Below the pieces are notes generated by a model. It made no database searches. It saw only the letters and a list, made by a program, of their open reading frames with translations, and was not told where the DNA came from. From Eledone cirrhosa (taxonomy: Eukaryota): a stretch of 64,000 bases of DNA. The position numbers were made by a program, and so were the translations under genes. Shown in pieces: positions 37,438 to 39,895 of the stretch. Where the stretch lies: NCBI GenBank assembly GCA_964016885.1, contig OZ024747.1:9486001-9550000 (forward strand). The letters are read 5' to 3'. Position 1 is the first letter of the stretch, and each line of letters starts with the position of its first letter.

Positions 37438-37817
37438 CAATATATACCAGTTTTATAAATAAATTTTAACATACCCTTTCAAAATGCAACCGTTACTTTT
37501 GGAAGACATCAGGATATTGGATTTGTTTATCTTAGTAAGTCATTGTGTTACGGAGAATATATATATATATATGTGTGTGTATATATATATATATATATGT
37601 AGGAGGTGAGTTTTATTGTAGTACAATAAAGCAATGCAGATATCGGATAAGAAGCACTCTACAATTTGTGGGACTGGAGTATGTTAACTCCTTTAACCAT
37701 CTTTTGATCTTATATTATATATATATATATATATATATATATATACATTATGAAGAGAGAAGAAACATTTAGATATAATTAGTAATAAAATGTATCATAC
37801 CTAAACTGCTCCTAAAT

Positions 37818-37907
37818 TCCTCGACTACGTAGTTTCGTGGCATAAACAAAAACAATATATCATAAAGATATAGAGTCCCTGCGAGGTCTGCCGACTTATC
37901 AAGAGGA
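37818..37907 (-). ncRNA. Hammerhead family D (U3-A8), inverted copy
   Basis: Reverse complement of 38431-38520. Confidence 0.72.
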
Positions 37908-38430
37908 TACCTCATTTTACTAGTCTCAAGAACGCGTCTACACGACGTGAGAAAGAATCCCAAAAGGCGGAGGGGGAGATAGTCACGCGATATAACGGTC
38001 GAGAAACAGAGCTAAGCCTCTTATAACCCCGAAGAAAATACCACGGAGGCGGAGGGGGTATTTATATCGAGGCCGTAGAAGAGGTGGTGAAGAAGCAGTT
38101 GGGTGCGGATGCATTCATGTATATATGTGTGTGTCCGCATGTATCTGTGTGTTTCTAAATATATTGTTAATAACTCCCTCTGGTCGAGCAATCTTTGAAG
38201 TGTGGGGACAGCTGGAAAGCTTCCATTACTCATACTTCTCGCCTTCTTCACCACCTCTTCTACGGCCTCGATATAAATACCCCCTCCGCCTCCGTGGTAT
38301 TTTCTTCGGGGTTATAAGAGGCTTAGCTCTGTTTCTCGACCGTTATATCGCGTGACTATCTCCCCCTCCGCCTTTTGGGATTCTTTCTCACGTCGTGTAG
38401 ACGCGTTCTTGAGACTAGTAAAATGAGGTA

Positions 38431-38520
38431 TCCTCTTGATAAGTCGGCAGACCTCGCAGGGACTCTATATCTTTATGATATATTGTTTTTGTTTATGCCA
38501 CGAAACTACGTAGTCGAGGA
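38431..38520 (+). ncRNA. Hammerhead family D (U3-A8 variant), predicted cleavage after 38515
   Basis: uccuc-UUGAUAA-gucggca...ugccac-GAAA-C uacgua G-UC^gagga. Confidence 0.75.
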
Positions 38521-39025
38521 ATTTAGGAGCAGTTTAGGTATGATACATTTTATTACTAATTATATCTAAATGTTTCTTCTCTCTTCATAATGTATTTTTA
38601 ACTCTGATACTGGTTCAGTCTAGTTCAACTGAATTGGTCTGTCCCAGTCATTCATTGAGCAACATCGGTGAAGTTGGCACCCTTAACTCACAGTTGGGTG
38701 CGGATGCATTCATGTATATATGTGTGTGTCCGCATGTATCTGTGTGTTTCTAAATATATTGTTAATAACTCCCTCTGGTCGAGCAATCTTTGAAGTGTGG
38801 GGACAGCTGGAAAGCTTCCATTACTCATACTTCTCGCCTTCTTCACCACCTCTTCTACGGCCTCGATATAAATACCCCCTCCGCCTCCGTGGTATTTTCT
38901 TCGGGGTTATAAGAGGCTTAGCTCTGTTTCTCGACCGTTATATCGCGTGACTATCTCCCCCTCCGCCTTTTGGGATTCTTTCTCACGTCGTGTAGACGCG
39001 TTCTTGAGACTAGTAAAATGAGGTA

Positions 39026-39115
39026 TCCTCTTGATAAGTCGGCAGACCTCGCAGGGACTCTATATCTTTATGATATATTGTTTTTGTTTATGCCACGAAA
39101 CTACGTAGTCGAGGA
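39026..39115 (+). ncRNA. Hammerhead family D, second tandem copy, predicted cleavage after 39110
   Basis: Same sequence as 38431-38520. Confidence 0.75.
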
Positions 39116-39895
39116 ATTTAGGAGCAGTTTAGGTATGATACATTTTATTACTAATTATATCTAAATGTTTCTTCTCTCTTCATAATGTATTTTTAACTCT
39201 GATACTGGTTCAGTCTAGTTCAACTGAATTGGTCTGTCCCAGTCATTCATTGAGCAACATCGGTGAAGTTGGCACCCTTAACTCACAGTTGGGTGCGGAT
39301 GCATTCATGTATATATGTGTGTGTCCGCATGTATCTGTGTGTTTCTAAATATATTATATATATATATATATATATATATATATATATGTGTGTGTGTGTG
39401 TGTATATATATATATATATATATATGTGTGTGTGTGTGTGTATATATATATATATATATGTGTGTGTGTGTGTGTGTGTGTGTGTGTGTGTGTGTGTGTT
39501 AGGTTATAAAAAGGTAATTTATTCCGAGTGTTTACAAATGTTTCTTTAGTAGTTACACAGCCTAGTCATGCTATATGCAAATTGGTAGTTATTTATTTGC
39601 AGATACTCAATTTTCAAATGCTGTTCGGACCACCAATTCTTCAGAACGAGTGACTGGATTATGATTTCTTTGTATTTCTTAAAGGGAGTAATTGGGGAAT
39701 ATAGAAGAATCGGAAACTCCGGAATATAGAAGAATCGAAAACTGAGTTTCTTTAACTGTTCTTTAGTAACTCATTGAGTAACCCCCCTCACCGTACGTCG
39801 ACTCTATCTAGCGTAGAAATTAACCATTACTGCATTCAGGATAATCCTAAGCATTCCTTGCATAACCTAATATATATATATATATATATATAGAA

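Follow-up and report, generated by a model that had tools for sequence, protein, structure and literature searches.

The window, the 64,000-nucleotide stretch of Eledone cirrhosa DNA analysed here, carries a tandem array with an inverted partial copy, set into a (TA)n target whose left (37711..37742) and right (39356..39387) halves directly abut its ends as flanking sequence. The direct arm occupies 38096..39355 on the plus strand and comprises 2.12 units of 595 bp (38096-38690, 38691-39285 and 39286-39355), which are 100% identical at period 595 in a self-comparison of the window. It meets at a blunt junction an inverted, 5'-truncated arm of 353 bp on the minus strand (37743..38095), the exact reverse complement of 38243-38595. 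We number the unit from u1 at 38096, such that U3 of the hammerhead core is u341, the predicted cut falls after u420 and the inverted arm spans u148-u500. The motif TTGATAA occurs at 38436 and 39031 on the plus strand and at 37902 on the minus strand, marking three U3-A8 type I hammerhead motifs, and a GAAAC-helix III-GUC block starts at 38502 and 39097 on the plus strand and is also present on the minus strand. The first hammerhead (38431..38520, +) consists of helix I (38431-35/38516-20), the core UUGAUAA (38436-42), a long branched helix II, GAAA (38502-05) and a palindromic helix III (38505-14); the second lies at 39026..39115 (+) with U3 at 39031, and the third, in the inverted arm, at 37818..37907 (-) with U3 at 37902. 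Predicted cuts after 38515 and 39110 delimit a 595-nt monomer (38516..39110, +). An earlier note made from the letters of this DNA had described about 2.1 identical units behind an inverted partial copy in (TA)n, a U3-A8 hammerhead in each unit and these same monomer bounds, and all three descriptions were confirmed.

In the window hammerheads every core base other than U3 and A8 is canonical. This core is not new: U3-A8 has been reported as a natural covariation with earlier evidence of activity in vitro (PMC3088659), and it is already present in Schistosoma Penelope-like elements (PLEs), with about 1,300 PLE-linked motifs reported in Schistosoma mansoni (PMC4209133). An Rfam scan of 36000-41000 returned no hammerhead match at E<=10, which agrees with the expectation that standard searches would miss the motif; the long helix II together with the variant core may explain this. 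For the three helices round the core, with helix I open, 95% of cells are paired across 12 sequences. Hammerhead pair counts greatly exceed the slid controls, but no excess remains over the shuffle control (70/500), so that within-family covariation is weak evidence for the ribozyme; helices I and III are invariant among the hammerhead sequences compared. The minimum-energy fold of the isolated motif is not the active form, which is 1.5-7 kcal/mol higher. A duplex between two copies of the palindromic helix III has a computed energy of -12.9 kcal/mol, matching what is expected of a dimer-type hammerhead (PMC4209133). When the fold of the nascent RNA is predicted, a proposed distal extension of stem I forms, but it is the weakest part of the original observation because its 5' strand is partly missing in a sister family. 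Conservation was assessed in the ribozyme 3' half, which was not used for selecting loci: in the chromosome-1 sample, none of its 27 sites has variants shared by at least three loci, compared with 70 of 470 sites elsewhere (p 0.015). Judged from sequence, the ribozyme quite probably cleaves in vivo.

The monomer has no long coding frame, the longest ATG ORF on the closed circle being 76 aa, and an ORF with RT and GIY-YIG endonuclease, as an autonomous PLE would carry, is absent from the 595-bp unit. Two successive units of the array each contain a type I hammerhead, the non-coding tandem arrangement that characterises non-LTR retrozymes. From cut to cut the monomer is predicted to fold far better than shuffles (z -7.0, compared with -0.54 for the isolated ribozyme region). 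Directly after the cut lies a long predicted hairpin (38516..38586, +) that stops just before a site we term S and is kept in the sister family through one-sided changes. Site S (u496-u503; 38591..38598, again at 39186-39193, +) and site L (u63-u76; 38753..38766, again at the right end of the insertion, +) are the first and second fixed 3' ends and putative RT starts, about 80 and 245 nt past the cut site, and the roughly 165-nt "tail" between them (38596..38765, +) folds as two predicted hairpins. In the predicted consensus fold (alignment A1), both halves of the ribozyme core pair with other parts of the unit (columns 520-552; 355-359/427-431 with 601-612), possibly an off-state that would shield a circle from re-cutting. 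A TATA-like hexamer followed by the motif CCCCTCCGCC lies at window 38270-38291, and the motif recurs about 85 bp later at 38363-38373. Both copies of the motif are kept in the sister family and sit in predicted loops; these elements are possible promoter or protein-binding sites, and a profile of 5' ends over u217-u231 contains no sharp start just downstream of them. Elsewhere in the window, a histone 3' UTR stem-loop-like match at 40902-40946 (-) scores 26.4 bits, below the gathering score of 34, and a 415-codon open frame lies outside simple repeats at 17713-18960 (+).

We searched the 3.0-Gb genome for further copies, a check that the earlier note had called for, and found thousands of them, dispersed in the manner of retrozymes. 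A 301-base query gave 879 candidates, the best 40 of which, those scored, are all about 100% identical. The 19-letter 5' half of the motif gave 6,338 matches against 1 for its reversed control, and its occurrence is therefore not due to chance; 99 of the first 100 listed are U3-A8 and the other is U3-G8. No C3-G8 version with the same flanks was found genome-wide, the 9 C3 matches all being C3-A8 single changes. There are several subfamilies with unit lengths of 590-597 bp, and the sister family, about 75-80% identical, has the same ends and core: 31 of the 32 motifs listed for loci L165-L189, which were picked by BLAST, read UUGAUAA and keep U3-A8. The window element is one insertion of a young non-coding family with thousands of copies in this genome. 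An assembly artefact that created the tandem or the inversion is extremely unlikely; the units are indeed 100% identical, and the public-run coverage compared at the locus consisted of contigs only, but dozens of loci follow the same grammar with different junctions, and the unit is found in public runs of three studies.

The most informative feature of the family is the presence of two fixed 3' ends and their reciprocal use. Copies end against TA either at S (u496-503, with ends recorded at u496-501) or at L (u63-76, with ends recorded at u51-75), and their 5' ends are variable. About half of the insertions are head-to-head, and among the 73 of these scored in 140 loci, 71 combined S with L, one L with L and one S with S; single-ended insertions divide evenly (32 L, 30 S), and random pairing of the two ends is rejected (binomial p 3e-19). 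The tally counts one duplicated insertion (L094) twice and includes some loci whose selection relied on mutations or on a query enriched in L ends; in the chromosome-1 set alone, 27 of 28 were S+L. The S+S case (L088) was discarded, as the script had mis-paired two neighbouring insertions at a locus that itself holds an S+L insertion of the sister family. L177 is a clear L+L exception, and L181, where TA is missing at one end and which was left unscored, is a possible second. The window copy fits the common pattern, with S at 37743 and L at 39355. These insertions share the anatomy of PLEs (fixed 3' ends with an optional tail, 5' truncation, partial tandems and an inverted 5' copy), and the (TA)n microsatellite target is as in Neptune and Naiad.

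We then considered how the inverted arm arises. Fold-back copying from palindromes at the junction has been proposed for PLEs (PMC3846280), and self-priming of this kind, in place of a second target-primed event, would draw further support from the near-equal unit positions at some junctions (168/168 in L118, 299/299 in L159 and 237/236 in L094). Across 60 head-to-head junctions, 11 of them at loci picked because a 5' end lies at the cut, none is recurrent and arm lengths are uncorrelated (rho -0.06). The S arm extends outside the L arm in 30 of the 60 and the reverse holds in 24, so neither arm is generally contained in the other, and each has its own fixed outer end at TA. Together these observations favour a pair of independent priming events, new for every insertion, over both fold-back and inherited inversions; we regard fold-back as improbable. 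That both cDNAs are primed in one coupled event is, in our judgement, likely.

The genome also contains PLEs with which the unit can be compared. A GIY-YIG search returned 10,597 candidates, of which 150 were scored and 40 loci examined. The pLTRs of families A, D, E and F, whose proteins are 54-73% identical to one another, contain U3-A8 hammerheads, whereas the hammerheads of families C and G are C3-G8; no hammerhead was found in family B among the loci examined. The 3-8 pair therefore covaries across families of this genome, and the unit is seen in sequence to share the derived U3-A8 state with one Neptune-like group. The suggestion that U3-A8 is a compensatory variant is supported by this exchange and by its retention in the sister family; the covariation sought by the earlier note is thus found for the 3-8 pair across families, but not in the ribozyme pair counts, which do not exceed the shuffle control. 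The family A protein joins RT to GIY-YIG through a CX4CXXC linker, a mark of Neptune and Nematis (PMC8557442). Families A, E and F share the (TA)n target of the unit; family A, whose geometry is closest to it by eye, has its first end about 80 nt past the cut and shows S/L-type reciprocal pairing in 4 of 4 cases. A separate 5'-truncated family A pLTR lies in its own (TA)n in the window (37058-37273, -), 470 bp left of the insertion; it has the long 3' end and a U3-A8 hammerhead of its own, whose U3 is at 37228. In family D (L048, L050, L066, L072, L076, L096), whose copies are 95-98% identical, every hammerhead seen keeps U3-A8 and has GCAA for GAAA; judging from this sequence, a PLE that was active recently may carry a ribozyme that is weakened or dead. 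Another tandem family (about 490-510 bp; L070:8068-9553) has internal TA tracts and a hammerhead of the canonical C3-G8 type; it often lies beside unit insertions and in the flanks of many loci, and more C3-G8 motifs occur in L149, L099, L127 and L188.

Searches for an autonomous partner related to the unit in sequence found none. Neither BLAST nor a monomer profile detected homology between the unit and a pLTR in the 40 GIY-YIG loci, drawn from the 150 scored of 10,597. Forced-mismatch patterns on the 3' half of the motif gave 79 matches, which were read as point changes and truncations, and 5'-half patterns gave 25 against 70 for the control. Apparent chimeras of unit arms and family A pLTRs (L099:2505-2629; a loose end in run X6 behind window 37862) were not accepted because nested insertion into shared TA tracts can explain these joins. 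Taken as a whole, the insertion anatomy, with fixed ends, truncation and S+L pairing, is typical of PLEs and upholds the earlier proposal of copying by a Penelope-like RT; we are highly confident that the unit is a mobile, non-autonomous element copied by a PLE. The tandem structure would also suit an element propagated as DNA, either a satellite or a rolling-circle element, whose hammerhead-like motif is a vestige. This is highly improbable: autonomous PLEs in this genome share with the unit its fixed 3' ends, its truncation to variable 5' ends, its inverted arms and its TA target, and changes that preserve pairing maintain the RNA hairpins. Of the 161 predicted monomer pairs, 7 are changed on both sides and many on one, a count from seven sequences that represent in effect two lineages.

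The sequences within insertions bear on the nature of the template. Differences amount to 0.70% between tandem units and 0.66% between inverted arms, compared with 4.5% between loci. Across 133 loci, a common non-CpG variant was present in every unit that covers its site in 220 of 235 cases; eight of the 15 exceptions concern sites used to select loci, leaving seven, two of them in L147. Rarer variants, seen in 2-4 loci, were array-wide in just 19 of 48 non-CpG cases, and sample-private variants in 15 of 117, some of them across both arms (in L121, 7/7 and 8/8 pieces, both arms). Array-wide variants of this kind indicate that insertions mostly repeat one monomer sequence. Units within L147, L086 and L038 disagree at subfamily-diagnostic sites, possibly through mixed templates or later gene conversion.

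Arms range from 0.05 to 4.9 identical units. Nine loci, complex or of the sister family, were set aside; of the 69 arms counted, 63 cross one cut site, although the way loci were selected inflates this number, and 25 cross two or more; over 99% of cDNAs that reach the cut site run past it. A 5' end exactly at the cut gave 32 matches genome-wide, and 28 of the 30 viewed are true truncations, including two pairs of duplicates; in the sister family the 4 such matches are too few to interpret. A hand tally over u415-u429 (first 100 of 190 matches, with 13 indel variants dropped) placed 12 ends each at u421 and u422 and 1-9 at each of the other 13 positions (mean 4.8), an approximately twofold excess at the first two bases after the cut that hints indirectly at cleavage, accounts for less than 1% of passes and is open to microhomology bias. 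Over u588-u5, about 45 of the first 100 of 547 matches are true truncations, the rest being intact subfamily copies that pass a mis-registered pattern, and u217-u231 gave 223 matches over 15 positions against 190 for u415-u429. None of these three profiled windows contains a sharp or dominant 5' stop or transcription-start peak.

The simplest template that runs on across the cut, lacks a fixed 5' end and has a uniform sequence is a circle, and the sequence evidence leads us to favour, on balance, a circle as the main template. A contrasting scenario keeps the same element and PLE twin priming, and has as template an uncleaved linear multimer, transcribed from source loci of uniform sequence, or one linear RNA with repeated template jumps, in which case the hammerhead would be slow or protein-dependent and circles would play no part in copying. 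Several observations are compatible with it: cDNAs nearly always pass the cut site, a few insertions are mosaic, transcription might start at u594-u4, where 5' ends are in soft excess, and family D has highly similar copies despite its core change. In addition, cleavage is reported to be dispensable in vitro for the Poseidon element PAc of Anolis, uncleaved RNA being the main substrate and ribozyme mutants still being inserted (PMC11167929). Nevertheless, array-wide rare variants would require a bottleneck to one monomer, inherited inversion junctions number 0 of 60, the sharp 5' stop is absent from the three profiled windows and the core is conserved over 20-25% divergence. We therefore consider a linear template fairly unlikely.

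Our preferred reading, held with moderate confidence, is a non-LTR retrozyme that behaves as a young, non-autonomous Penelope-like retroelement, with a self-cleaving, probably circular monomer and coupled twin priming. A tandem copy would first be transcribed; the U3-A8 hammerhead, which probably dimerises via the palindrome of helix III, would then excise the 595-nt monomer, a step suggested by anatomy, conservation and the literature, and the monomer would be closed into a circle. A Neptune-like PLE protein with RT and GIY-YIG domains presumably nicks both (TA)n strands, and two cDNAs would be primed on the same monomer sequence, one at S and one at L; the fixed ends, the TA target and their reciprocal use are observed in the genome. 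Each cDNA would round the template for a variable length, giving the 0.05 to 4.9 units observed, and the 5'-truncated ends would be joined head to head, or one end straight to TA, in the joins that we observe. A more specific version, which we hold tentatively and rate somewhat below even, is that a Neptune-type PLE protein dimer binds one circular RNA asymmetrically; one subunit would always begin at S and its partner at L, each using a nick in a different strand of (TA)n, and the two would travel around the circle with strand displacement. If true, the tandem units, the inverted copy and the tail that PLEs have at one end only would all follow from one mechanism, and the family would be the first genomic record of an animal hammerhead circle as an RT template.

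The origin of tandem, inverted and tailed PLE insertions and the reverse transcription of retrozyme circles are published open questions, and a 595-nt substrate with two mapped starts, thousands of near-identical insertions and candidate RT-endonucleases makes both testable. The insertion pattern offers unusually clear clues to how PLEs copy RNA into DNA, and three features, the almost exceptionless pairing of S with L, the 165-nt tail and the signature of a single monomer, render PLE copying and the circle-template model directly open to experiment. Moreover, entire retrozyme and Neptune families escape surveys based on CUGANGA if their cores are U3-A8. In mostly non-subscription literature, we found no paper that counts the one-tail pattern or explains it by coupled twin priming, and no report of these PLE signatures in a retrozyme; the accessible part of the PMC11167929 supplements contains no text on "tail" or "inverted".

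Retrozymes as non-autonomous PLEs are already published: tandem type I hammerhead repeats that yield circular RNAs are known as non-LTR retrozymes (PMC7229834), and an origin from PLE pLTRs has been argued from co-occurrence and homology in a preprint in which 8 of 9 Xenopus retrozyme dimers failed to cleave in vitro (bioRxiv 10.64898/2026.07.22.740005). Like the metazoan non-LTR retrozymes of these two sources, the unit is non-coding, tandem and equipped with one type I hammerhead per repeat, with GC below 50%, thousands of copies, a structured monomer and proposed PLE mobilisation. Its 595 nt exceed the 150-450 bp of PMC7229834 (Cervera and de la Pena 2020) and fall inside the range of 51-972 bp in the Li et al. 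2026 preprint. It differs in its U3-A8 core and in that circles are reported there and inferred here; its short dispersed arrays, the inverted arms, the TA target and the pair of fixed 3' ends are absent from the accessible parts of the retrozyme accounts. With EN+ Neptune-clade PLEs (PMC8557442; PMC3846280) it shares 5' truncation, partial tandems, an inverted 5'-truncated copy, a tail at one end, microsatellite targeting and a hammerhead upstream of the 3' ends. In contrast to these elements, the unit has no ORF, its tail is about 165 nt as opposed to 30-40, the whole element is one repeated unit and the one-tail pattern, when counted, is near-absolute. PAc (Frangieh et al. 2024, PMC11167929) likewise has two internal RT starts downstream of the hammerhead, an AT-rich target nicked on both strands and a protein predicted to dimerise; its core is C3-G8, however, and in vitro its start site was not seen to differ between strands, whereas in unit insertions the strands nearly always differ. 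This insertion anatomy and these PAc parallels imply that the element works like a non-autonomous PLE while having the sequence hallmarks of a retrozyme. Finally, the minimal hammerheads of the Cercyon PLE of Schistosoma mansoni (PMC4209133) share U3-A8 for C3-G8 in a PLE context, but those motifs are heterogeneous and mostly single, whereas the motif of the unit hardly varies, is repeated in tandem and combines a long helix II with a helix III that is a 10-nt palindrome.
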